Positions 3,287 through 37,649 of a stretch of 37,649 bases of DNA are shown here, in pieces. The notes under the pieces are model-generated. The model was not told the DNA's origin, ran no database searches, and saw nothing but the letters and a program-made list of their open reading frames with translations. Each line of letters opens with the position of its first letter. The stretch's first letter is position 1. The stretch is from a virus (lineage: Duplodnaviria; Caudoviricetes). A program made the translations under genes and the position numbers. The stretch covers positions 1 to 37,649 of IMG/VR virus record IMGVR_UViG_3300005573_000176. One strand, written 5' to 3'.

Positions 3287-4192
3287 ATGAACCTTCCAAA
3301 CAACCAACTGATCCCCCTCGAAATCCTCGCCTTCATCACCGACCGCCAGGCTCGCCATCTCTCCAACAACACCATCAAATACTACACCGACGAACTCAAT
3401 AAATTCAGTTCCTTCCTCTCCTCCCTCGGCATCACCGCCATCCCCCAAATCACCCCCGATTCCATCCGCCAATACCTCATCCAACTATCCTCAACTCGCA
3501 ACCCCGGTGGCATCCATGCCGCTTACCGCGCCATCAAAGCCTTCCTCCGCTGGTATTCCGTCGAACTCGATGATCCTTCCATCGAGCGCCTCATCCGCAA
3601 AATCAAACCTCCCAAAATAAATCCCAAACCCTTACCCGGCATCACCCTCTCCCAAATCCAACAACTCATCCAGACCTGCGATAAATCCTTCAACGGTGCC
3701 CGTGACCGTGCCATCTTTTACACCCTCCTCGATACCGGCCTCCGCCGTGCCGAATTCACCGCCCTCAATATCCAAGATGTCAATTTCAAAACCGGCGCCA
3801 TCCAAATCCTTCACGGCAAAGGTGACAAACCTCGCACCGTCTTCATCTCTCCCTCCACCCGCCGCGAAATCCTTCGCTACCTGCGCCTCCATCCCAGCCC
3901 CCAGCCATCCTCTCCCCTCTGGGTCACTTCAAAAGGTACCCGCCTCACCATGACCGGCTTGCGTGAAATCCTCCGCCGCCGCTCCCAAAAGGCTGGCATC
4001 CCCGAACCTCAAATCCACGACTTCCGCCGTGCCTTCGCCATCGAAAGCCTCCGCAATAATGGCGATCTCGCCCGTCTATCTTATTTCCTTGGCCATTCCG
4101 ATATTAAAACTACTCAACGTTATCTTCACATCACTGATGAAGACCTCGCCGAATTTCATGACCTCACTTCCCCCGTTCAAAACCTCCCCTGA
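3287..4192 (+). CDS. int: Tyrosine integrase
   Basis: AGGAG RBS before ATG 3287; catalytic R (GLRRAE), K (GKGDK), HDFRR, LGH and Y (TQRY); adjacent to tRNA-derived att. Confidence 0.93.
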   Translation: MNLPNNQLIPLEILAFITDRQARHLSNNTIKYYTDELNKFSSFLSSLGITAIPQITPDSIRQYLIQLSSTRNPGGIHAAYRAIKAFLRWYSVELDDPSIERLIRKIKPPKINPKPLPGITLSQIQQLIQTCDKSFNGARDRAIFYTLLDTGLRRAEFTALNIQDVNFKTGAIQILHGKGDKPRTVFISPSTRREILRYLRLHPSPQPSSPLWVTSKGTRLTMTGLREILRRRSQKAGIPEPQIHDFRRAFAIESLRNNGDLARLSYFLGHSDIKTTQRYLHITDEDLAEFHDLTSPVQNLP

Positions 4193-5822: not shown

Positions 5823-6554
5823 TTAACTGATCCTCATGATATACATCACCGCCTTATAGGGTGGCAAATTACTGCTTGCATCCGTCGTCGGATTTGTATG
5901 GCTGTGCGCACTCCCCGCATTTGTCGTCGGATTCGTATGGCTGTGCGCACTCCCCGCTCCGCTGGTAATATTGTAATTATGTGTATGGTAAGAATCTGGA
6001 TAATCCTTCCAACTACCCATTACCATTTCTCTATTATAACTGGTAGCACTTGTTGTTCCGGAAATGCTGTGTGTATGGCTCGACTCACTCCCCGTATTCC
6101 CTTGTGTGTGCGTATGGCTCGCTTCACTTCCCGTACTCCCTTGTGTGTGGGTGTGTGTACTCGCTCCGCCCGTCGCCCCCACCGCATAAATTCCTCCCGC
6201 CCCCACAATGAATTTATCCCGCAAATCCGGCGTCCCATTCGTCCCATCGCACAGTGCAAACCCGCTTGGAATAGTATTCGTATCTCCATACCATAAAATA
6301 ATTCCTCCAATCGGTATCCCGGCAGAAATATATTTCAACCCAAAACTTTCGCTTGCTAATGAACTTAAAATCTGCTCATTACTACCCACAGTGAATGACC
6401 CTGCCGCATCCGCTCCGCCCGCCACTACAATCTGCCCCTTCGCCGTGAAAATATCCGGTATTCCCGCCGCAAAATTGTCCCGGATATACGTATTATGGTC
6501 TGCCGCCGTCCATAAATTCCCGGTTTGCACCGTCCTAACTATCGTATAGCTCAT
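5823..6554 (-). CDS. Tail fibre protein with collar domain and HxH repeats (paralog 2)
   Basis: IPIGGIILWYG..IPSGFALCDGTNGTPDLRDKFIVGAG collar; HTH/HSH repeats; NLPPY C-terminus. Confidence 0.85.
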   Translation of the reverse strand: MSYTIVRTVQTGNLWTAADHNTYIRDNFAAGIPDIFTAKGQIVVAGGADAAGSFTVGSNEQILSSLASESFGLKYISAGIPIGGIILWYGDTNTIPSGFALCDGTNGTPDLRDKFIVGAGGIYAVGATGGASTHTHTQGSTGSEASHTHTQGNTGSESSHTHSISGTTSATSYNREMVMGSWKDYPDSYHTHNYNITSGAGSAHSHTNPTTNAGSAHSHTNPTTDASSNLPPYKAVMYIMRIS

Positions 6555-7282
6555 GAAACCCTCATGATATAAGCCAGCGCATAATAAGGCGGCAAATTAC
6601 TGCTTGCATCCGTTGTCGGGTTGGTATGCTTATGTGCGCTTCCCGCATTTGTCGTCGGATTGGTATGGCTGTGTGCACTCCCCGCTCCTGTAGTCCCTGA
6701 AAAAGTATGGGTATGAGTATCACTTGCAATTAATGCACCTGATCCTGATGCTAATGATGTAGTTTGCGAAGCCCCTCCCGTCGTTCCTGAATAACTGTGC
6801 GTGTGGCTCGACTCACTTCCCGTATTTCCCTGTGTGTGCGTGTGACTCGATTCAAGCCCCGTATCGCCCTGCGTATGCGTGTGTGTACTTGCTCCGCCCG
6901 TTGCCCCCACCGCATAACTTCCTCCTGCCCCTACAATAAATTTATCCCGCAAATCCGGCGTCCCACTCGTCCCATCACACAGCGCAAACCCATTAGGAAT
7001 ATTCCCCACACTCCCACTCCAGATAATGATCCCTCCAATCGGTATTCCCGCCCAGGCATACTTCAATCCCAAACTCTGGCTCGAATCCGCCATCAGCACC
7101 TGTCCGTCACTGCCCGGATTCAGCACTCCCGCCGCATTCTCCCCGCTCGCCACCGCAATCTGCCCCTTCGCCGTGAAAATATCCGGCACCCCCGCCGCAA
7201 AATTGTCCCGAATATAAGTATTGTGGTTAGCCGCCGTCCATAAATCGCCTGTCGTCACCGTCGGCACCGGGTTATAAGCCAT
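6551..7282 (-). CDS. Tail fibre protein with collar domain and HxH repeats (paralog 1)
   Basis: Same architecture and length (243 aa) as 5823..6554. Confidence 0.85.
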   Translation of the reverse strand: MAYNPVPTVTTGDLWTAANHNTYIRDNFAAGVPDIFTAKGQIAVASGENAAGVLNPGSDGQVLMADSSQSLGLKYAWAGIPIGGIIIWSGSVGNIPNGFALCDGTSGTPDLRDKFIVGAGGSYAVGATGGASTHTHTQGDTGLESSHTHTQGNTGSESSHTHSYSGTTGGASQTTSLASGSGALIASDTHTHTFSGTTGAGSAHSHTNPTTNAGSAHKHTNPTTDASSNLPPYYALAYIMRVS

Positions 7283-22346: not shown

Positions 22347-22372
22347 ATCACACCTCCTTTGTTAAAATATTT

Positions 22373-22403
22373 CGCCCGAAGCTGTTCCAAACAACTTCGG
22401 GCG
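22373..22403 (-). terminator. Strong hairpin in late-operon leader (attenuator-like)
   Basis: CGCCCGAAG(TTGTT)-TGG-(AACAG)CTTCGGGCG, ~14-bp stem followed by AAATATTTT. Confidence 0.55.
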
Positions 22404-22518
22404 CTCAACTCCGATCTTACCCGTCCAATCGCCGGGCTTGCTAAATTTTCATCAGTTCAGCGGGGGGTGGGGAAACCTGGTGGGGGTCAGGCGGGAGCCC
22501 CCCGCCTCGCTTATCTGC

Positions 22519-22658: not shown

Positions 22659-22687
22659 TTGACATTATATATAACGTTATATATAAT
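22659..22687 (+). promoter_or_regulatory. Consensus sigma70 promoter overlapped by 24-bp perfect palindrome (operator)
   Basis: TTGACA 22659-22664, 17 bp, TATAAT 22682-22687; ATTATATATAACGTTATATATAAT at 22664-22687. Confidence 0.85.
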
Positions 22688-22714
22688 ATAAGCAAGATTA
22701 GAAAGGAGAACGAA

Positions 22715-23164
22715 ATGGCTAAATATACTGTAAATTATTCTTGCGGACATGGCTCACACACGGTGGAATTATTTGGACCCGGCAAAGAAAGAGAACGGAA
22801 AATTGCTTGGTATGAAAAGAACATAGTTTGCCCAGAATGCTATAAAGCATCTAAAAAATCTGAACAATATCAAGCCGAAGTAATCAATAATATGTTCTCT
22901 GGCGGTGCATATATCGTTATAACAAATGGCGATACTTATTCAATCAAAGAGCAACTAAAAGAGCATGGTTTTTCTTGGCGTGAATATTATAGCAATAACG
23001 ATATATTTGGCACACATCCTCACAAAGCCTGGATGATTAACATCCCTGATAACGATAATGCTCTAAATGAGTTATTATCATATTTATCTACTCTGGGCAT
23101 CTCCGATATTGATTTCAAGACAAATCCAATTACACAATCTTTACTGGCTAAAACAAATCAATAA
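22715..23164 (+). CDS. Hypothetical early protein (CGH...CPEC Zn-binding N-terminus)
   Basis: AAGGAG RBS; C-terminal GDTYSIKEQLKEHGFSW motif. Confidence 0.8.
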   Translation: MAKYTVNYSCGHGSHTVELFGPGKERERKIAWYEKNIVCPECYKASKKSEQYQAEVINNMFSGGAYIVITNGDTYSIKEQLKEHGFSWREYYSNNDIFGTHPHKAWMINIPDNDNALNELLSYLSTLGISDIDFKTNPITQSLLAKTNQ

Positions 23165-23170
23165 TTTATC

Positions 23171-23214
23171 GCCCCGCCCGTCGGGCAATAGGCGGGCAAG
23201 TAGAAAATAAAATG
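23171..23214 (+). repeat. Intergenic hairpin repeat, copy 1 (CGGGCAATAGGCGGGCAA...AAAATAAAATG)
   Basis: 18 bp (23182-23199) identical to 23970-23987. Confidence 0.85.
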
Positions 23215-23928
23215 GAGAAAACTGTAACAATCAATCTTGATGAACGTAGTCAATCGCCTTATGGGGGACGATATGGGGCATATCGAAAGGTATACGCCAG
23301 TCGACCGGGACTAGCAACGTACAGCGTGAAATTAGTTGGCGAAATATTAGAAGCTACTTTGGTATGGGATACTGATAATTTCCGCGAGGATGATTATCTT
23401 ATCGTCCATACCCAGCGTAATCCCGGTTTAGTAGCTGGGTCAAGCCATAAAGAAGGGTATGATCTTCTGGAAGGAAATATGCCAGTATGGGCAGATTTCC
23501 CAGGTTTATACCACGATTTCGTATTTAGGTATTATGATGATGCTCGTGAAATATTTTGGGATTTAGCTGATAAGCTAGCTGCTAAAAATCCTCAAATGCA
23601 ATCACTCGCTGAAACGATACAGTGGGCATGCAGAAAGCATTCCAAAAATAGAATTGCTTCTGCATGGGAAGTGGTGGCAAAGGAATTACATGAGCAAGGT
23701 CTACTAAACTATGTGCCAGAACGGCATAACTATACATGGACTGCTATAAGAGCCCAACCATTAAGATTGCTCCGTGCCATAAAACGGGAAACATGGAGCA
23801 TGGCAGGGATTAAGAGGCCTGGATTTTTATCAGATTGGCCTAGGTATCAGGCGATTCCACAAAATATTTATGTTGTGGTATCACCCTCCAAATCAGAACA
23901 ATATATCACGTTGGGAGGTGGTAAATAG
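23212..23928 (+). CDS. Hypothetical protein
   Basis: 238-aa ORF in the rightward operon. Confidence 0.8.
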   Translation: MEKTVTINLDERSQSPYGGRYGAYRKVYASRPGLATYSVKLVGEILEATLVWDTDNFREDDYLIVHTQRNPGLVAGSSHKEGYDLLEGNMPVWADFPGLYHDFVFRYYDDAREIFWDLADKLAAKNPQMQSLAETIQWACRKHSKNRIASAWEVVAKELHEQGLLNYVPERHNYTWTAIRAQPLRLLRAIKRETWSMAGIKRPGFLSDWPRYQAIPQNIYVVVSPSKSEQYITLGGGK

Positions 23929-23961
23929 CAATACATAATATCAGCTATGATAACAGTTATC

Positions 23962-24015
23962 TTGCCAGCCGGGCAATAGGCGGGCAAATATACTAAAGAA
24001 AGGAAAAATAAAATG
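23962..24015 (+). repeat. Intergenic hairpin repeat, copy 2
   Basis: TTGCCAGCC-GGGCAATA-GGCGGGCAA then AAAATAAAATG. Confidence 0.85.
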
Positions 24016-24471
24016 AACAAGTTTGAAGTAAGGAGCTATGAACCAAAGTATATATACGGCGAAGACCTCACAGATGCCATAATGCGCCAGCGAGTCTTCA
24101 GGACAGAAAAAGGAACTAGACGAGTTGATACAGCGCCCGGATTTCCGGAATACTTCGAAGGACGTTATATATTTGAAAGTTATGGGGGCGAAGAGCGTAA
24201 AGTAAAAAATGTTATCGAAACTTTTATTCCTGAAAACATCACCACTCTCGATGGGAAACAATTTTGGCGCGCTATCTGCGAATTGGAAAATGGTAAAATT
24301 ATACAAATAGACGCCATATTAGTGGAGGAACGCGGACGTCCTACTATTTACGACAAAAAAATGCGCCAGACTGCCATCTGGCTACCAGAAGAACAGCTAG
24401 AATGGCTACGACAACAGGGCAACATCTCGGAGACTATCCGCGCGCTCATTGCCAAAGCGATGTCCGAATAA
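24013..24471 (+). CDS. Unknown N-terminal domain fused to C-terminal ribbon-helix-helix regulator
   Basis: RGRP...MRQTAIWLPEEQLEWLRQQGNISETIRALI RHH pattern. Confidence 0.8.
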   Translation: MNKFEVRSYEPKYIYGEDLTDAIMRQRVFRTEKGTRRVDTAPGFPEYFEGRYIFESYGGEERKVKNVIETFIPENITTLDGKQFWRAICELENGKIIQIDAILVEERGRPTIYDKKMRQTAIWLPEEQLEWLRQQGNISETIRALIAKAMSE

Positions 24472-24502: not shown

Positions 24503-24530
24503 AAGCCGCCAAATATCGGCGGCTTTTTTT
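24503..24530 (+). terminator. Intrinsic terminator between convergent operons
   Basis: AAGCCGCC-AAATATC-GGCGGCTT followed by T-run. Confidence 0.85.
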
Positions 24531-25311
24531 ATATATATGCCCTTACTTCCGGAAATTCCGCCGCAAATTCATTGAATAAATCCGGATACATTCGCTTCAA
24601 AAACACCAGTCTTCCATACCTCATGGATCTCGTTCCAAACATCGCCCCATTACGCGCCAGTTCCCTTCCCTCCGGCGCCATATCATATAATTCGTTATAG
24701 GGGAGATTTGCGCTGACAATATATGCCCAAATATCCTTGCCATTCCATCTTGCCAGTGGACAGCACACCCATTGCTCCCTTACGCTGGCAAAATAAATCT
24801 CTCCTCTCATCGCAAATAACCTGCTTCGGATGTAACTCTCCTCCGATCTCATTCCAATAAACGTCCCATCAAATCCTCTTTTCTTTGCCTCCCTATCTAA
24901 TACTTTCCCAAGTGATTCGGCATATTCCCGCTGAGCAATCCTCGCTTCTCTAGTCATTTCCTCATCCTGTATATATAATCCAACTTTTTGATAATATTCC
25001 CAGATTGACGGCCCCTCTAATTCAATGAACTCCATTCCAGCATGTCTCTCCAAAAATATCTCTTTTACCCGCACCGTATCCGGCCATTCATCATATTTTC
25101 CGCAATTTACATACATCACCGGCGTACTTGGATACCTATTGAGAATAATATCTGCCATTACCAAACTATCTTTACCAAAAGACATGCTGATATATGGCTT
25201 TTCCATATAATCAAATCCTTTTGCTATATTCCGTTCCGCCTGCTCTATCTTTCGACTAAATCGATCTAATTTTGCCCATAACAAATATTGATTTCGTTCC
25301 GTTTCATCCAT
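24529..25311 (-). CDS. cysH: CysH / PAPS-reductase-like protein (type IV-B accessory)
   Basis: PP-loop SMSFGKDS, GMRSEES..R, PLARW...DIWAYI....LPYNELYD. Confidence 0.9.
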   Translation of the reverse strand: MDETERNQYLLWAKLDRFSRKIEQAERNIAKGFDYMEKPYISMSFGKDSLVMADIILNRYPSTPVMYVNCGKYDEWPDTVRVKEIFLERHAGMEFIELEGPSIWEYYQKVGLYIQDEEMTREARIAQREYAESLGKVLDREAKKRGFDGTFIGMRSEESYIRSRLFAMRGEIYFASVREQWVCCPLARWNGKDIWAYIVSANLPYNELYDMAPEGRELARNGAMFGTRSMRYGRLVFLKRMYPDLFNEFAAEFPEVRAYI

Positions 25312-25811
25312 TTTTCCAATCTCTTCCTCACCAGCTGACGATGACAATTAATCCGATGTAATGATAATCCAAGCTCCATCGCAATCCCTGCTGTCGTATC
25401 TCCATTACAAATCCTCGTCAATATTTCCACATCCCTTTCAATATATGCTTTCAATCTTCCATTTTTACTCACTGCAGATATTATTTTTCTGATTTCATCC
25501 TCCAAATCCACTATGTTTTGCTCTTCCTGCAGTATATCCGCTGTCTTTTCATAATTATCAATACTTACCGGCGCTGATATTCTCATACCCCTTATCTTAT
25601 CCCACTTAGCCCCATATATCCACCAGATCAGCCAGTTTTTTGCCCTGATTTTCCCGCTTCCTAACCTGTATTTCTCACTTTTTCTTCTCGTCTCCCAAAT
25701 AGCTAGATAAGCCTCTTGGATCATATCCGCGAGATCATCATCGCAAACGGGATAACCAATCCTGCCAGCCACTGTCTTAGCAGCACAAATCGCCAGTTGA
25801 TAATCATCCAT
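25266..25811 (-). CDS. Sigma70/ECF-like factor (region 2-like plus C-terminal HTH)
   Basis: DDLADMIQEAYLAIWE resembles sigma region 2; GDTTAGIAMELGLSLHRINCHRQLVRKRL resembles region 4 / LuxR HTH. Confidence 0.65.
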   Translation of the reverse strand: MDDYQLAICAAKTVAGRIGYPVCDDDLADMIQEAYLAIWETRRKSEKYRLGSGKIRAKNWLIWWIYGAKWDKIRGMRISAPVSIDNYEKTADILQEEQNIVDLEDEIRKIISAVSKNGRLKAYIERDVEILTRICNGDTTAGIAMELGLSLHRINCHRQLVRKRLEKWMKRNEINICYGQN

Positions 25812-26490
25812 ATGGCATAACCAGCTCCATCTGATTTCGTTTATCCCAATAAGGCGGCCGGATCCCATAATTCATCATCTTTGGCAATCCTTTCTCCCTT
25901 GGCCAATGATAGATTGGTATCCCCCGCATTAATCTGTCGCCATTCCAGATCGATTTATCCTCCGCCATCTCCTCTATCTCCCATTTCCTCACCTTTCCCC
26001 ATCCCTGCACAACCTTCTTACCGAGATGGGTAATCATTTGCAATATACTCTCCAACCACTCTCTTTCTGCGACAAGATACCACTCGACCCATAATGTTGA
26101 CCGATAATAGACAGGCATCCGATATCCCTTATATTGCCCGGCGCTCGTGTCAATCTTTCCGCGCCGGGCTCGGAAATCAATCAAATAAGCCAGTGACTGA
26201 TCCAACCGCTTGCTCCAGGCATCCTGACCATCCACATACGGTCCCCATTGCGCCCAAGAGGCTCGATAATACCAGTCTTTCGCATGCACAATCTCAATCG
26301 GCATCCTTCCGCCCCTCATCTCCTCCCCATGCGGAGCGGCAAGCCAAGACACTCCAGGCAGCGTACTGGCTCGCACTCCCATATCCATCCTGCACCACTG
26401 ATACAACAAAACGCCATCCAGTGGTAGATATTGATCTGCCACTATCGGCGTGCTCATCCATGCTCTCACCCGCAAATTACTGTAACCCAT
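25804..26490 (-). CDS. csf3: Type IV CRISPR-associated Csf3 (Cas5-group RAMP)
   Basis: LPLDGVL, Y.AS, G.YK.YR.P, G-rich loop HLGKKVVQGWGKV, GIRPPYW; follows csf2. Confidence 0.85.
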   Translation of the reverse strand: MGYSNLRVRAWMSTPIVADQYLPLDGVLLYQWCRMDMGVRASTLPGVSWLAAPHGEEMRGGRMPIEIVHAKDWYYRASWAQWGPYVDGQDAWSKRLDQSLAYLIDFRARRGKIDTSAGQYKGYRMPVYYRSTLWVEWYLVAEREWLESILQMITHLGKKVVQGWGKVRKWEIEEMAEDKSIWNGDRLMRGIPIYHWPREKGLPKMMNYGIRPPYWDKRNQMELVMPYG

Positions 26491-27454
26491 CCAACATCTC
26501 CTTGATTTTGTCTCCATGCTCCTGCAAATGTTGAAGATAATGCGTCCCCAAAGCAAAATCAATCTCTTTTCCGCTTGGCGCAGTACGTGGGTTGATCTCC
26601 ATCCATTTGTCAAATCGGATTGCAACCTTCCCATGTCCAACCCCACTTTTTCCCCCAATATAAGGCCACTTTGAAAACTCCGCTAGCGTCACACAAAACG
26701 CATCGAATTCCACATCCGTCACATCATCCAGCGCCACATCCCAATATAACCTCGTTCCCGCTGCAATTGTCTCGACATAATATCGCATCTGTTGAGATTG
26801 CCCGGTCTCTCCAGCCACATCTTCATCCGTTCCTCGCCTCGACCGCTTCGCCGCTGCGCTTTCCTCCAGCAAATTTCGGATATCCGGTGCTATTAATTGC
26901 CTTAATTGCTCATTCTTTTCATCATCCCGTCTGGTATAGGCTTCTTCCTGGATCATATCCCAGATTGATTTTTCATCTCCGCTCACAAACCGCTCCGGCA
27001 CAATATGTGCCGTCTCTTTGCATATCGGTATTACTTTCCCAATCTTGGCATTTCCAGGCATAATTTGATTTCCCATCGCCCCGCCGAATAATGCCACCAG
27101 TGGTATTGTCTTTCGCCATCGCCTTGCCTCATCCACATCGAGATTAGAATTTCCACTCACTTTCGTCAATGATCCCCCCGAAAAGAGAAAATAAAATGCC
27201 GCCAGGCTCAAACCCTGAATTTCTCCAGTCTCCTCATTGATGCCATATCCCAGCACTTTTAGCATATGCAGCATTCCCCTGTCGCGTAATATTCCCCGTA
27301 TCGAATTTCCACTGATAACCGGTACTTCTTCAAATGTCCCATCAGGCTGGATAATTTTCTCTCTTCGCAGCTTTGCATTAATCCCAAAAGTATCCCCAAT
27401 GTGGCTGATTGATGTTAGCGCAGTCATCTCTCCCTCAAATACATAGGTTTTCAT
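26477..27454 (-). CDS. csf2: Type IV CRISPR-associated Csf2 (Cas7-group backbone RAMP)
   Basis: ALTSISH, VPVISGNSIRGILRD, LFSGGSL, PLVALFGG, G-rich loop IGGKSGVGHGKV. Confidence 0.9.
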   Translation of the reverse strand: MKTYVFEGEMTALTSISHIGDTFGINAKLRREKIIQPDGTFEEVPVISGNSIRGILRDRGMLHMLKVLGYGINEETGEIQGLSLAAFYFLFSGGSLTKVSGNSNLDVDEARRWRKTIPLVALFGGAMGNQIMPGNAKIGKVIPICKETAHIVPERFVSGDEKSIWDMIQEEAYTRRDDEKNEQLRQLIAPDIRNLLEESAAAKRSRRGTDEDVAGETGQSQQMRYYVETIAAGTRLYWDVALDDVTDVEFDAFCVTLAEFSKWPYIGGKSGVGHGKVAIRFDKWMEINPRTAPSGKEIDFALGTHYLQHLQEHGDKIKEMLDGLQ

Positions 27455-27819
27455 TCCTCAATCTCCTTTTCTAATTTTTGTTTTTCATTCCATGCCGATT
27501 TTCTCTCTTCGTTATCCACTCGTACCATCAAAACAAGTAATGTTGTCTCTTCCCGCAGCATTTTCAACATCTCCTTATCATTCGCTTCCCGGATAATTTG
27601 ATTGAATAATGACCTCTCCGCTTCCGTCCTTCCCGGCTGGCTGCGCAATTTTGAACAGAGAGTATTGATAAACTTCGGCAGGCTGCTGGTGTAAGCCGCC
27701 GATTTTATCTCGTTCTCGAATTGCTCCCAGATCGTCATTCGATATCGGCTTTTGTAATCCGCCGATATCCCCTGCCATATCATCCGCAGCATGGTTGCTG
27801 TCATTTCCTTCGTTTCCAT
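27451..27819 (-). CDS. cas11: Type IV-B small subunit (Cas11-like)
   Basis: ~122-aa all-helical protein between csf1 and csf2; AAGGAG RBS; IW..F...IKSAA, F...LC.KL. Confidence 0.75.
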   Translation of the reverse strand: METKEMTATMLRMIWQGISADYKSRYRMTIWEQFENEIKSAAYTSSLPKFINTLCSKLRSQPGRTEAERSLFNQIIREANDKEMLKMLREETTLLVLMVRVDNEERKSAWNEKQKLEKEIEE

Positions 27820-28429
27820 CTTCACTCCTTTGCGCCAAAAATAGCGCCAATTGAAATAATCCTTTTCCTCTCTCTTTCTTTATTTCATTCTCCAGCCTCT
27901 CCCATCGTTCGAATCCAAATTTGATAATTCGATGGGCAGCATACTTTCCGCTTTCAATTTCTGACTTGCTGAATGTCGTATATAAATTTTCTACTTTATC
28001 AATTAACCTCCTCAATATTTCTGAATCAACCCAGATAGATTGTTCTTCGAATTGCACCCATCCGCAATGTTGTCCTATTGGATTCCGCCGCGCCCGGAAT
28101 GCGAGATGTTTTTGTCCGCTTACAGCGATCACCGCCATCTCCGGGAATTCTCCCTCTATCAATAGTCTTTTCATTTCATTTTTATTTCCCTTGCCAACTG
28201 GAATCCATTCTCCTTTCACGACAAAGTGGCTGTAATTTTGCATTTTCTGTGGGATTTCTTTGCCCATCTTCCTCTGCAATTCTGCCGAAGATTGATCGAA
28301 CCAAAATAAACAATCATCACAAATAACATCACCATCCCCCACTAACAAATCGTAATTCGTAAACGTATCTTTTACCCATTTATTGAATTCAACACCCTCT
28401 TTTTCCTGCCCACAAATTTTACATTTCAT
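27578..28429 (-). CDS. csf1: Type IV large subunit Csf1 (Cas8-like, Zn-finger)
   Basis: CKICG...FTNYDLL...ICDDC, SGQKH, FSKSEI..G.Y; GAGG RBS before ATG 28429. Confidence 0.82.
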   Translation of the reverse strand: MKCKICGQEKEGVEFNKWVKDTFTNYDLLVGDGDVICDDCLFWFDQSSAELQRKMGKEIPQKMQNYSHFVVKGEWIPVGKGNKNEMKRLLIEGEFPEMAVIAVSGQKHLAFRARRNPIGQHCGWVQFEEQSIWVDSEILRRLIDKVENLYTTFSKSEIESGKYAAHRIIKFGFERWERLENEIKKERGKGLFQLALFLAQRSEDGNEGNDSNHAADDMAGDIGGLQKPISNDDLGAIRERDKIGGLHQQPAEVYQYSLFKIAQPAGKDGSGEVIIQSNYPGSE

Positions 28430-30469: not shown

Positions 30470-30745
30470 TTACTCCTTATTTTTAGATTTCTCCGAAATG
30501 ATTTCTGATAATTTCATTGTGTTTTTCCAGATTGTGAATTCACTTGCATTTTTTGCTGGATACATCCTGATCGCAATTTCAAATAATTCCAATGACTTTG
30601 CCTTTTCAAAAATATATTTCCATGATGCCCATGCAAGATTACGATAATCATCATTGGTCATCATATTTTCCCCTTCATAAATTCTTTCTAACCGTATATT
30701 CCACTCTGTTCTTAATTCATTGAGTTTTCTATGACTTAATGGCAT
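30470..30745 (-). CDS. Hypothetical protein
   Basis: ORF in operon. Confidence 0.6.
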   Translation of the reverse strand: MPLSHRKLNELRTEWNIRLERIYEGENMMTNDDYRNLAWASWKYIFEKAKSLELFEIAIRMYPAKNASEFTIWKNTMKLSEIISEKSKNKE

Positions 30746-31016
30746 TTCTTTTTTCCCTTTCTAATCTATGAGCCCTGTGATATTCCTTATCCCAATTCAA
30801 ATGGCATCTCTGACACAATGCCCTCAAATTCTCCCGGCGGTTATCATGCGTATCATGATTCAAATGCGCCACCGTCAAAACCACTTTTGATCCCGTTATC
30901 GGATTTGGCTTCCCATTTTCTGCACCGCAGAATTCGCATCTCCAGCCAGCTTCTTCCCTCACCGCCAAACTGATTTCTTCCCAATTGCTAGGATAATTCT
31001 CTCTTTTCATTGGCAT
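30729..31016 (-). CDS. HNH endonuclease-like protein
   Basis: CEFCG, LTVAHLNHD..N...NL..LCQRCHL. Confidence 0.85.
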   Translation of the reverse strand: MPMKRENYPSNWEEISLAVREEAGWRCEFCGAENGKPNPITGSKVVLTVAHLNHDTHDNRRENLRALCQRCHLNWDKEYHRAHRLEREKRNAIKS

Positions 31017-31528
31017 TTTGTTTCCTCCAAATCTTTTGGCCTTTCCATCCCGCAGGTTGGACATTCCATTGTTTCAACATATTTCTCTAGCAAAAAATTG
31101 AAATGTGGCTCCCACCAACTAGGATCACTATGCCTTCCGTTATTCGGACAATTCTCTTCCGCCCATTTCGTCCCCTTCAATGCCGTCCACCAGTAATCCG
31201 CCAGTCGATGTCCATCATGTTCTGCATCACAATTTTCAAATGTTTTTTCCCAAAATTCTTCTTGCTTCCGAAAAATATGTTCTGGAATATTTTCCCGTGC
31301 GATTTCCTTCAGCCATAAACCTTCTTTCCATTTTTTTCGGGATAATTCCGCCATTTTATTTTTCCATATCTCCGCCCGTTCTCTCTGTCTCAATATCCGC
31401 TCTTTTTCCGTTTCTGCTGTTGTCGCAAATTGCTCCGCAAACAGCGGATATCGCTTTGCCATCTTGTTATTTTTTCTCTTCGCCGCTCTCGCCGCTACCT
31501 TTTCAATTTCCATAACTTTCTCCTTCAC
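31007..31528 (-). CDS. Hypothetical protein
   Basis: 173-aa ORF; YPLFAEQ motif; C-terminal CPTCG. Confidence 0.65.
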   Translation of the reverse strand: MKEKVMEIEKVAARAAKRKNNKMAKRYPLFAEQFATTAETEKERILRQRERAEIWKNKMAELSRKKWKEGLWLKEIARENIPEHIFRKQEEFWEKTFENCDAEHDGHRLADYWWTALKGTKWAEENCPNNGRHSDPSWWEPHFNFLLEKYVETMECPTCGMERPKDLEETKCQ

Positions 31529-31559: not shown

Positions 31560-31960
31560 TTCCAATTGTTAACGGTTTTTACAATATTAACAATCGTTAA
31601 TAATTGCCTGTTTGTAAACCGTTTTTCTATTAACAAACGTTAATAAAAGGTGAACTTGGTGAACTTGGGTGAAAATTTTTTTTTAGCAAGTTCACCTTTC
31701 TTATATTTCGTTAACATTCCATAGCATCATCATCACCGTTAAAGCTCATATAAGTTCACCAAAGTTCACAAGTTCATCATTTTTGCCTATTTTTAAGCCA
31801 TAGCATTGCAGATTTATGATTGCTCCTCCAAAATAATTGCATTTTTCTGTTTTAATCCTGCGCGGTGAACTTGGTGAACTTACTTTTCCTTTCCAGAGCA
31901 AAAAAAAATATTTTTTTATTTTTGCACTTTTTCCCCCAACAAAGTTCACCAAGTTCACCA
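31560..31960. repeat. Probable replication origin: AAGTTCACC iterons in both orientations plus AT-rich palindromes
   Basis: GGTGAACTT at 31649, 31658, 31864, 31873; AAGTTCACC at 31688, 31752, 31942, 31951; variants at 31762, 31770; directly downstream of primase. Confidence 0.8.
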
Positions 31961-32007
31961 TTTGTCTGACAAATAAAACTCGCCCGTCTATAAAATCAAT
32001 CCTCTTT

Positions 32008-35988: not shown

Positions 35989-36919
35989 CCTCTAAATCAC
36001 TCCATCCTGGTACAACATACCTGGCTGTCGTATCCAATCGCTTATGCCCCAATAAACGGCTTACCACCGTCAACGGCTCGCCCTTATCCAATAATCGTTT
36101 GGCAAATGTATGTCTCAGCATATGCGGTGTCAACCCATCAATCCCAGCCAACCTGCCATACTCTCCCACCCTCCGTTGAATAAGTCTTGTACTCACACCA
36201 TCCCCATGCTTTCCGCAAAACAGATAAATGCCATCATTCCCTCGCACATCCAACCACGCCTTCAAAGCCTGCCTCGCCTCCCTTCCCAGCGGCACCTCTC
36301 TTTTTTTCTCCCCTTTTCCGCACCACACAATCACCTTCCCCGATCGCTCCCCCAGCATCACATCCTCAACCCGCAACCCTGCCACCTCCGCCTCACGCAG
36401 CCCGCTATACAACATCAAACCGATCATCGCCCAATCTCGGACAGCTTGTATCTTCCAGCTATCTGATTTCGCCCCATTTACAGCAATCTCAACTTGCCTG
36501 AGTAATCTACTCAACTCCGCTGCCTCTAACCACCTCGGCGCCTGTTCAACCTCCTCCCAGCGCTCGACCCCCTGAAATGGGTCATAAGAAATATATCCAT
36601 TTTCAAAAGCCCATCTCACCAGCCTGCGCAGGCTCTCTCGATATCGATTCCATGTCGCTGGCGAATAATGATTTGCCATTATCCAAGATCGATACTCACG
36701 CAAATCTATACTCGTAATCAATGAGGGATCAAATTCCTGCTTATTTACATTCTTGAACCATTTGATAAATTTATTAATATCTTCCAAATAAGACTTTATC
36801 GACTTGATGGATAACCCATCCTCCAATAACTCTTGATGAAACGCCTGCATCCAATCCACCAATTGGAAAGGCACTTCAGCCACTCGCCATGAATTAATTA
36901 CATTTTGATTTTTATTCAT
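35975..36919 (-). CDS. XerC/D-like tyrosine recombinase
   Basis: SAM-like N-terminus, GLREAE, GKGEK, TPHMLRHTFA, LLGH, TARY. Confidence 0.93.
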   Translation of the reverse strand: MNKNQNVINSWRVAEVPFQLVDWMQAFHQELLEDGLSIKSIKSYLEDINKFIKWFKNVNKQEFDPSLITSIDLREYRSWIMANHYSPATWNRYRESLRRLVRWAFENGYISYDPFQGVERWEEVEQAPRWLEAAELSRLLRQVEIAVNGAKSDSWKIQAVRDWAMIGLMLYSGLREAEVAGLRVEDVMLGERSGKVIVWCGKGEKKREVPLGREARQALKAWLDVRGNDGIYLFCGKHGDGVSTRLIQRRVGEYGRLAGIDGLTPHMLRHTFAKRLLDKGEPLTVVSRLLGHKRLDTTARYVVPGWSDLEDAVE

Positions 36920-36934
36920 CTCATCATTCCTTCT

Positions 36935-37381
36935 CTATTTTTTTATTAATTCAGATTGTATATCTCCAAATATTTCTTCCAAAGAAATAAATTGTGAATT
37001 TGCAATCGCGATAATCCAATATGGCAATACATCTGGATCGAACTCCATTATTAAATCCCGGGCAGCCAGATAAGCGATAGTTAAAAATAATGATTTATTT
37101 CTCGCTGGTTCTTCAAAATAGATAAAACGCTTTAAAGCATCAATGTAATTTTGTATTGTTCTGTTTTTTTCTTCATCAGATTTGAATTTTTGTATTCGTT
37201 TTGTGATTGGATTTTTAATATTCACTTTATATTGATTTTCAATAATAGGACGGGCCGATGATAAACGACAAGGAATACTGTTTAGATAAATAAGATCATC
37301 ATCTGGATAACATGGCCCGACATCCTCAAGATTTCCAATTAATACTTCGCCTTCTAATGTATCAATTAAAAATTTGAACAT
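36935..37381 (-). CDS. Hypothetical protein, distant paralog of neighbour's C-terminal domain
   Basis: AAGGAG RBS; KSLFLTIAYLAA..L.....DVLPYW matches KSFCIIAHLAA..L.....DLPDW. Confidence 0.75.
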   Translation of the reverse strand: MFKFLIDTLEGEVLIGNLEDVGPCYPDDDLIYLNSIPCRLSSARPIIENQYKVNIKNPITKRIQKFKSDEEKNRTIQNYIDALKRFIYFEEPARNKSLFLTIAYLAARDLIMEFDPDVLPYWIIAIANSQFISLEEIFGDIQSELIKK

Positions 37382-37403
37382 AAAATTCTCCTTTTATTCA
37401 CTA

Positions 37404-37649
37404 TCAACATTTTTTTCCTTGTAATTCATCCTGAACTTCTTTTACAATTCTTTCCAAATCCTCTAACTTCGCACCCCCTAATTTCGCCACCCAATCTGGC
37501 AAATCCCTCCGATCATATTCCGTCAGCAAATAGGATGCGGCCAGATGAGCGATAATACAAAATGATTTACTCAAATTACCTCCCCAAATCTGATAATATA
37601 AAGCATTCAAATATTCAGACAATACATTTATTTCTCGACGCTTTAAATT
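37404..37649 (-). CDS. 3' part of homolog of 807..1265 (5'-truncated by window edge)
   Basis: Near-identical to 831..1055 with a different C-terminal tail. Confidence 0.8.
   Translation of the reverse strand, partial: NLKRREINVLSEYLNALYYQIWGGNLSKSFCIIAHLAASYLLTEYDRRDLPDWVAKLGGAKLEDLERIVKEVQDELQGKKC

Follow-up and report, generated by a model that had tools for sequence, protein, structure and literature searches.

What does a CRISPR-Cas effector operon without an array do for the phage that carries it? The function of subtype IV-B has been open since the subtype was defined; its lack of arrays and its link with cysH have been described (PMC7038947; PMC8175902; PMC12669027), and the published ideas, namely that it acts as a sponge for CRISPR RNA (crRNA), as a crRNA scavenger or in nucleic-acid modification, gave no site of action. 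The question is raised here by an operon on the minus strand, at 28429-24529, of a 37,649-nt stretch of tailed-phage DNA (IMG/VR virus record IMGVR_UViG_3300005573_000176; the window hereafter). Were it not for the C-terminal tail of its Csf1 protein, this operon would simply add one more member to a known subtype; what is new is that tail, which is overprinted on cas11 and carries a motif of the type that binds the bacterial β sliding clamp, together with a sigma-like gene inside the operon. The conserved clamp-type motif points to a host partner, the clamp protein DnaN, and to a place, replicating DNA, and makes the role of the system directly testable.

Csf1, the Cas8-like large subunit (283 aa; 27578..28429, minus strand; PADLOC Csf1_0_IV, E 4e-26), has a folded core of residues 1-200, with CxxC at residues 3 and 37, which ends at about residue 200 (FLAQ at 197). 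It is followed by a tail of 83 aa (residues 201-283; 27578..27829, minus strand), 242 nt of which are overprinted on cas11 in a shifted frame. In the AlphaFold 2 (AF2) model of Csf1 (mean predicted local distance difference test score, pLDDT, 76.6) most of this tail is predicted to be disordered, with pLDDT <50 at residues 204-228, 237-274 and 276-280. It contains QYSLF (residues 255-259; 27653..27667, minus strand), a putative variant of the clamp-binding motif, which in bacteria is described as Q-aliphatic-x-[L/M]-[F/L], or a hexameric form, situated in tails and loops and tolerant at position 2 (PMC11139829). QYSLF satisfies positions 1, 4 and 5 of this pattern, its second residue, tyrosine, being aromatic. 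Relatives carry QLDLF, QLSLF, QLTLF, QLALF and similar sequences at the same site, and their tails end at or soon after the motif. The tail resembles the clamp motifs of Pol II, Pol IV, Pol III alpha, Hda and MutL in presenting Q-x-x-L/M-F/L within a disordered, mostly acidic C-terminal region; it differs in the tyrosine of the window copy, and the available text of the review names no Cas protein (PMC11139829).

The conservation of this motif was compared with what the overlapping gene alone would produce by resampling synonymous Cas11 codons in 30 loci (the window and 29 relatives, numbered here with L), the motif site being placed by an alignment anchor; the near-copies L020, L021 and L043 and two contigs that lack csf1 (L024 and L027) were left out. 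The Csf1 frame was open through the motif site in 23 of the 30 loci, against 1.1 expected. Among these read-through loci a wide clamp-type motif stood at the site in 21 (1.9 expected), the pattern of the review, with L, I, V, M, A or P at position 2, in 14 (0.5 expected), and the strict form QLx[LM]F in nine (0.2 expected); where Csf1 stops early, one locus in seven (L010) keeps the motif. Stop codons in the csf1 frame, counted over 21 loci, numbered 12 in 1155 codons of the overlap and 93 in 1326 codons nearer the 3′ end of cas11. The end branches of the Csf2 tree are long and its shape is star-like; shared recent ancestry therefore does not explain the conservation of the motif. The overprinted csf1 frame is under selection, and the 242-nt dual-coding overlap is a clear case of a putatively functional motif arisen by overprinting in a Cas operon.

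The motif also recurs at greater distance. A set of 1068 Csf1 matches at E ≤ 0.001 was reduced to 150 representatives by clustering at 50%, the end of the core being resolvable in 127. Tails of at least 30 aa carried the motif in 35 of 61 cases, against 1.2 expected from shuffling (27 against 0.04 for the strict form), and its bearers were scattered over a FastTree tree of the representatives. Twenty-one motif-bearing tails scored <15 bits against the overprinted linker; by eye, about half look unrelated to it and the rest may be distant overprints. No DNA context for three of the distant tails (P0015, P0132 and P0099) was found in three viral scans. The motif is not confined to Csf1: the Cas11 of a Rhodovastum plasmid operon (L058, 2477-2947; NZ_OW485605.1) ends in QLELF, the only one of nine Cas11 proteins examined to do so, and L048 has a Csf1 without a tail and QQDLF in the tail of its Cas11 instead. 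On this evidence the Csf1 tail is predicted, with good though not full confidence, to dock in the pocket of the host clamp. No clamp motif in type IV proteins was found in the literature searched, mostly open-access main texts; supplementary locus tables may already list these operons.

The second element bearing on function is the enzyme encoded by the last gene of the operon. The cysH-like gene (24529..25311, minus strand; 260 aa) specifies a PP-loop protein with the signature SFGKDS, matching PAPS_reduct at 4e-16. All 30 CysH-like proteins compared keep SxGKDS, and all 30 lack the C-terminal catalytic cysteine motif of bona fide reductases of 3′-phosphoadenosine 5′-phosphosulfate or adenosine 5′-phosphosulfate; the window protein scores 43 bits with the NCBIfam cysH model, against a cut-off of 165, and has no PDB sequence match at E ≤ 0.001. 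CysH-like proteins of IV-B without the catalytic cysteine have been read as ATP pyrophosphatases, and a nucleotide-modifying role has already been proposed for them (PMC8175902). The window CysH is 62-63% identical to four relatives and 26-37% identical to the other 24. Supported Csf2 clades (L009 with L012; L003 with L006, L023 and L024) are divided among CysH clades, the two trees disagreeing, from which it follows that CysH has been exchanged between relatives. A radical S-adenosylmethionine (radical-SAM) gene is found in L014 and a methyltransferase-like gene in L048, with no cysH in the fetched DNA of either. The initial annotation, made from the sequence alone, had suggested among other functions a complex guided by a non-CRISPR RNA with CysH as a nucleotide-modifying effector; the effector half of that suggestion is the best fit among the functions it proposed, given the retained PP-loop and the missing cysteine, and no guide RNA of the kind was found.

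The gene content and IV-B membership of the operon, the selection on the tail frame, the recurrence of the motif, the PP-loop signature and the swapping of enzymes are the observations from which a mechanism can be proposed. By analogy with the complex of Mycobacterium sp. JS623 (PMC7937560), a Csf2/Cas11 filament would assemble on RNA; the overprinted Csf1 tail is predicted to tether this ribonucleoprotein (RNP) to the host clamp; and the exchangeable CysH-like enzyme would draw on ATP to modify nucleic acid at freshly replicated DNA, either this DNA or the RNA associated with it. The modified DNA would most likely be the phage's own, the gain being protection from host defences. The chain as a whole, in which a clamp-tethered RNP brings a nucleotide-modifying enzyme to replicating DNA to the benefit of the phage, is the preferred reading, offered tentatively, with rather less than an even chance of being right in every link, the substrate, the modification and the benefit being its weakest steps. 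Natural variants, some with the tail and some lacking it, and partnered by CysH, a methyltransferase or a radical-SAM enzyme, provide ready controls. A broader version is speculative and improbable as it stands: that IV-B complexes in a large viral branch have acquired a clamp hook more than once, by overprinting on cas11 or in the tail of Cas11, and that these replisome-riding, CRISPR-derived RNPs write interchangeable marks on fresh DNA, in this phage also with a sigma factor of its own that couples late transcription to replication. Such a Cas effector would be targeted by the replication machinery and not by a guide RNA.

Several observations weigh against the proposal. The window motif, with its tyrosine at position 2, fails the aliphatic pattern of the review and sits 24 aa from the C-terminus, and the pattern itself has limited specificity: in its loose hexameric form it matches the conserved end of Csf3 in 8 of 31 cases. 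The profile used for the distant search included the tail, which favours tail-bearers, and some of the representatives are the same proteins as those of the loci. Short-tailed representatives have the motif in two of 66 cases, and none of seven Csf1 proteins from plasmids (including that of JS623), phage SPI1 and haloarchaea has it. Because the tail is accessory (64 of the 66 short tails and all seven of these proteins lack the motif), clamp tethering cannot be a universal IV-B mechanism; the archaeal PIP-box, for its part, gave no matches in two haloarchaeal operons. Neither a substrate, nor a guide RNA, nor a modified base has been identified. Finally, the JS623 complex is reported to bind RNA and to resemble type III complexes, which points to RNA over DNA (PMC7937560).

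A clamp-tethered RNP might serve instead as a weapon: with a host-derived or other RNA as guide, it would bind competitor or host DNA and stall or sequester the replisome, much as type IV-A silences without a nuclease. The Csf1 core folds like the large subunits of type IV-A, the best Foldseek matches of its model being the Csf complex chains 7xg1_A (E 1.9e-3, prob 1.00) and 8rc3_G (E 0.011); type IV-A is reported to suppress elements without a nuclease (PMC12669027); a clamp motif would fit a target in replication; two tail-bearing relatives (L025 and L052) encode Cas6; and two related phages carry GGY-NN arrays like those of VIPR, inter-virus conflict modules thus occurring in the group. We nevertheless consider this reading unlikely. 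Neither the window nor the surroundings of 31 related operons yielded an array, a repeat unit or a conserved non-coding RNA, there is no helicase, and the near-universal, swapped modifying enzyme is left unexplained. Repeat searches of the window gave no CRISPR array or mini-array, the best match to the host-type CRISPR repeat described below being 19 of 33 letters, and no run of four or more GGY-NN units; it holds no tRNA, and the single Rfam match (E 0.46) was treated as chance. An all-against-all blastn comparison of the masked flanks of 32 loci produced no shared non-coding element, only short pairwise matches, and no RNA datasets were among the listed matches to the region.

The gene between csf3 and cysH raises another possibility. 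It encodes a protein of 181 aa (25266..25811, minus strand) resembling extracytoplasmic function (ECF) sigma factors, with region 2-like helices and a C-terminal helix-turn-helix (HTH), and was missed by the initial annotation, which counted five translationally coupled genes; the five named are all present, the operon has six, and csf1 and cas11 are more than coupled, overlapping by 242 nt in different frames. The protein matches TIGR02937 (E 2.5e-7, below cut-off), GerE (1.7e-5) and Sigma70_r2 (0.018); the top 11 Foldseek matches of its model (predicted template modelling score 0.43) are sigma-factor entries, none at E ≤ 0.001, and it resembles viral sigma-like clusters in the Atlas, forming a small family of 10 proteins. 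Both other members with DNA context (L001 and L008) lie in the same slot, beside a different CysH subfamily. Sigma or HTH genes from three unrelated families occupy the slot in nine of 32 loci; by eye, L007 and L011 have enzyme-like genes there, and most other loci have nothing of note. Most likely the sigma-like gene is a phage transcription regulator carried as a passenger in a variable operon slot.

Its position would also suit replication-coupled late transcription, in which the clamp-bound complex recruits the sigma-like protein, or another HTH protein of the slot, to the late genes. There is a precedent in the clamp-dependent late transcription of phage Mu, whose MuC protein has a clamp motif that serves a purpose other than DNA synthesis (10.1101/2025.01.04.631326), as that of the Csf1 tail would. 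MuC is a single DNA-binding activator; in the window it is a Cas8-like subunit that bears the motif, and none is seen by eye in the sigma-like protein. The lysis and head genes come after the operon, and a sigma-70 promoter (22547-22519) and a hairpin (22403-22373) stand before a holin-like gene. The slot, however, is empty or filled by an enzyme in most loci, its HTH occupants belong to unrelated families, CysH is unexplained, and the end of an early operon is in any case the usual place of late regulators; this reading is accordingly thought distinctly unlikely. As an observation in its own right, the promoter on the minus strand at 22547-22519 is a perfect sigma-70 match; a structured leader some 150 nt long comes next and then the terminator-like hairpin of 14 bp, an arrangement that resembles an antitermination-controlled late promoter. 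A structured stretch of 152 nt here (22362-22513; z -2.4) was considered as a guide RNA and rejected; it has no blastn match in 21 relatives and is read as the late leader with its terminator.

The idea that the Csf filament soaks up host crRNAs, put forward in print (PMC7038947; PMC8175902) and in the initial annotation, is less probable again, and is the weakest of the three functions that the annotation proposed. It gains something from host spacers. In sample S3, contigs of a strain 95-99% similar to the window pass from CRISPR-repeat letters into phage DNA at three sites: a protospacer in cysH (24757..24790, minus strand), in a contig of run X3 with repeat letters on both sides and TTT on the 5′ side; a likely one in the sigma-like gene (25710..25744, minus strand), joined to the repeat on one side, the far end being a matter of inference; and a likely one in csf2 (27055..27089, plus strand), also joined on one side, with TTC upstream if it is 35 nt long. 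The 5′ flanks at the three sites are TTT, TTG or TTC for spacers of 34-35 nt. All three repeat-joined sites in 13.25 kb fall inside the 3.9-kb operon, a weak clustering (p about 0.026) that priming alone could produce. A metagenome-assembled genome (MAG), G004, with a related operon also encodes Cas8c. Against these points, the JS623 complexes are reported not to be enriched in crRNA (PMC7937560), and soaking up crRNA would require no clamp motif and no modifying enzyme; the motif and the swapped enzymes are left without explanation.

Least probable is that the likeness to clamp motifs is incidental, the tail being selected for subunit contact or translational coupling, or the enzyme acting on RNA away from forks: the tail is missing from about half of the Csf1 representatives and from JS623, the window motif is non-canonical, and the methyltransferase-like replacement in L048 has an rRNA dimethylase as its best Pfam match, but the same five-residue pattern ends unrelated-looking linkers and occurs on Cas11 too, and variation at the site follows the tolerance of clamp motifs, with Q1, L/M4 and F/L5 fixed and position 3 free (PMC11139829).

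The host of the phage is likely a member of the Anaerolineae, judging by the relatives of three of its proteins. Those of Csf2 comprise 21 viral loci at 54-81% identity, seven more with an alignment, and six GTDB loci, four of them Chloroflexota MAGs by title; one relative of the sigma-like protein comes from a Chloroflexi MAG; and terminase relatives (34-52%) occur in eight of 301 genomes of the class of G002. The best DNA matches to the region are hot-spring metagenomes. The host-type repeat, which we take to be type I-C-like and for which Rfam gives only a sub-threshold match to CRISPR-DR9, is present with one mismatch in 58 copies in one of 401 genomes of that class. None of the 57 spacers of genome G343 matches the window or the loci, and Cas8c was not found in G343, so the host species and the CRISPR subtype are not fixed.

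By profile, structure and synteny the operon is a true member of subtype IV-B. The initial annotation had described a complete, array-less IV-B-like operon closing the early/middle gene run of a near-complete temperate phage genome, and this is confirmed: six intact, overlapping open reading frames (ORFs) fill the minus strand from 28429 to 24529, the leftward early/middle run ends with them, and PADLOC recognizes Csf1, Cas11, Csf2 and Csf3, to which the PAPS_reduct match of CysH and the type IV-A matches of the Csf1 model may be added. The small subunit gene cas11 (27451..27819, minus strand; 122 aa; Cas11_1_IV, 8e-33) lies between csf1 and csf2 and has its own AAGGAG ribosome-binding site, inside csf1. 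In types I-C and I-D, cas11 is hidden inside cas8c or cas10d and started from an internal ribosome-binding site, sharing the frame of the large-subunit gene; in the window the two frames differ, and the overlap therefore encodes two different sequences. A programmed frameshift fusing Csf1 to Cas11 is not favoured, since a separate ribosome-binding site serves cas11 and the frame of csf1 runs on to the conserved motif. The backbone subunit Csf2 (Cas7-like; 26477..27454, minus strand; 325 aa; Csf2_0_IV, 2e-85) was also compared with the PDB through a 16-sequence profile, which found the IV-B Csf2 of 7JHY first (7e-33), then an entry named 'Cas7c' (7e-24) and IV-A Csf2 (1e-7). Csf3 (Cas5-like; 25804..26490, minus strand; 228 aa; Csf3_0_IV, 4e-48) has a conserved NQMxL end (25804-25840, minus strand) that may be a mere structural strand. 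The NCBIfam csf1, csf2 and csf3 models all match under their cut-offs (TIGR03115 in the case of Csf2), as expected of a divergent branch. Among the 54 ORFs scanned, no Cas1, Cas2 or Cas6 was found, nor the DinG or RecD helicase or Cas10-HD that would sign types IV-A, IV-C or IV-D. The initial annotation had also excluded any nuclease; its statement holds for the Cas genes and the array, and not for nucleases, as a small phage-type HNH ORF (30729-31064; phrog_1571, 3e-25) lies 2.3 kb upstream, outside the operon.

Virus-borne IV-B is less novel than was supposed: it is in print for the 'Fuxiviridae' of Bathyarchaeia (PMC10848311) and for prophages (PMC7038947), and close relatives of the window operon are common in viral contigs. 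These systems, like that of Skermania phage SPI1 (KR011061), share with the window a viral IV-B operon with a CysH-like gene. In Fuxivirus a host spacer is reported to target cas7, as spacers hit the operon here, but that virus differs in having a mini-array and an archaeal host (PMC10848311); in SPI1 the difference is a Csf1 without the tail motif. The JS623 Csf complex (PDB 7JHY), a Csf2/Cas11 filament on RNA (PMC7937560), comes from an operon that has the same csf1-cas11-csf2-csf3 order and likewise no array, Cas6 or adaptation genes. The window Csf2 is about 31% identical to that of the JS623 pMYCSM03 operon; the window differs in lying on a tailed temperate phage, in the 83-aa overprinted Csf1 tail with its clamp-type motif, absent in pMYCSM03, and in having the sigma-like gene and cysH inside the operon.

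Related phages show further variation. In L019 (6411-7500; also in L020), where Cas11 is 89% identical, csf2 breaks off at about codon 169 and an unrelated ORF stands in place of csf3 and cysH, so the IV-B operon is dispensable in some lineages. The Cas6 genes of L025 (6975-7694) and L052 (6975-7622) are inserted after csf2, and the fetched DNA of neither shows an array. Two IV-B-carrying phages, L015 (2156-2850) and L002 (2436-2660 and 3901-4026), have long GGY-NN arrays of the kind that is typical for VIPR RNAs, and an ORF of 194 aa between the arrays of L002 (2759-3343) may encode the Vipr protein; a term search of the available text of the VIPR preprint gave no mention of type IV (10.64898/2026.04.26.720920). 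About 8 kb upstream of the IV-B operon, L011 has a CRISPR mini-array (934-1200; four repeats of about 37 nt) whose spacers match neither the window nor the fetched loci.

The window itself is an HK97-type tailed temperate phage with terminase, portal, prohead protease, capsid, tape measure, integrases and a repressor-like HTH protein. Its ends are repeated at 95.5-98.7% identity, and the genome is therefore near complete. The repeats (1-1055 and 36112-37649) are imperfect, at 95.5% and 98.7% and not 100%, and the right copy contains an additional ORF (36935-37381); two strain variants may have been joined in this contig, or its integrase region may be duplicated. The G-rich codon bias from which the initial annotation argued for long residence is a genome-wide strand skew and not a property of single genes, the plus-strand integrase (3290-4192) being C-rich (C at third codon positions, C3, 0.62). 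The operon does share the skew, with G3 of 0.27-0.44 and C3 of 0.08-0.14, as in the early genes, whereas the adjoining plus-strand cassette lacks it; this fits long residence and is no proof of it. Between cysH and that convergent cassette stands a hairpin (24503..24525, plus strand) with a T-tract on the plus strand only. The cassette comprises three genes (22659-24471, plus strand), with a perfect sigma-70 promoter (22659-22687) in front of them. Two of its intergenic gaps (near 23180 and 23970) share a 16-nt motif, which lies in GC-rich stretches resembling hairpins. The intergenic hairpin motif matched eight viral contig sites exactly, and no homologue of the query proteins taken from the window accompanied any of them. 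Related contigs skip 23193-23970 or run into other genes past the repeat, which suggests a variable gene-cassette locus. Elsewhere, a tail-fibre-like gene of 243 aa (5823-7282, minus strand) is tandemly duplicated, with 76% DNA identity and internal 39-nt repeats, and 9-nt direct and inverted repeats clustered beside a primase-like gene (31645-31963) are likely the iterons of a replication origin.

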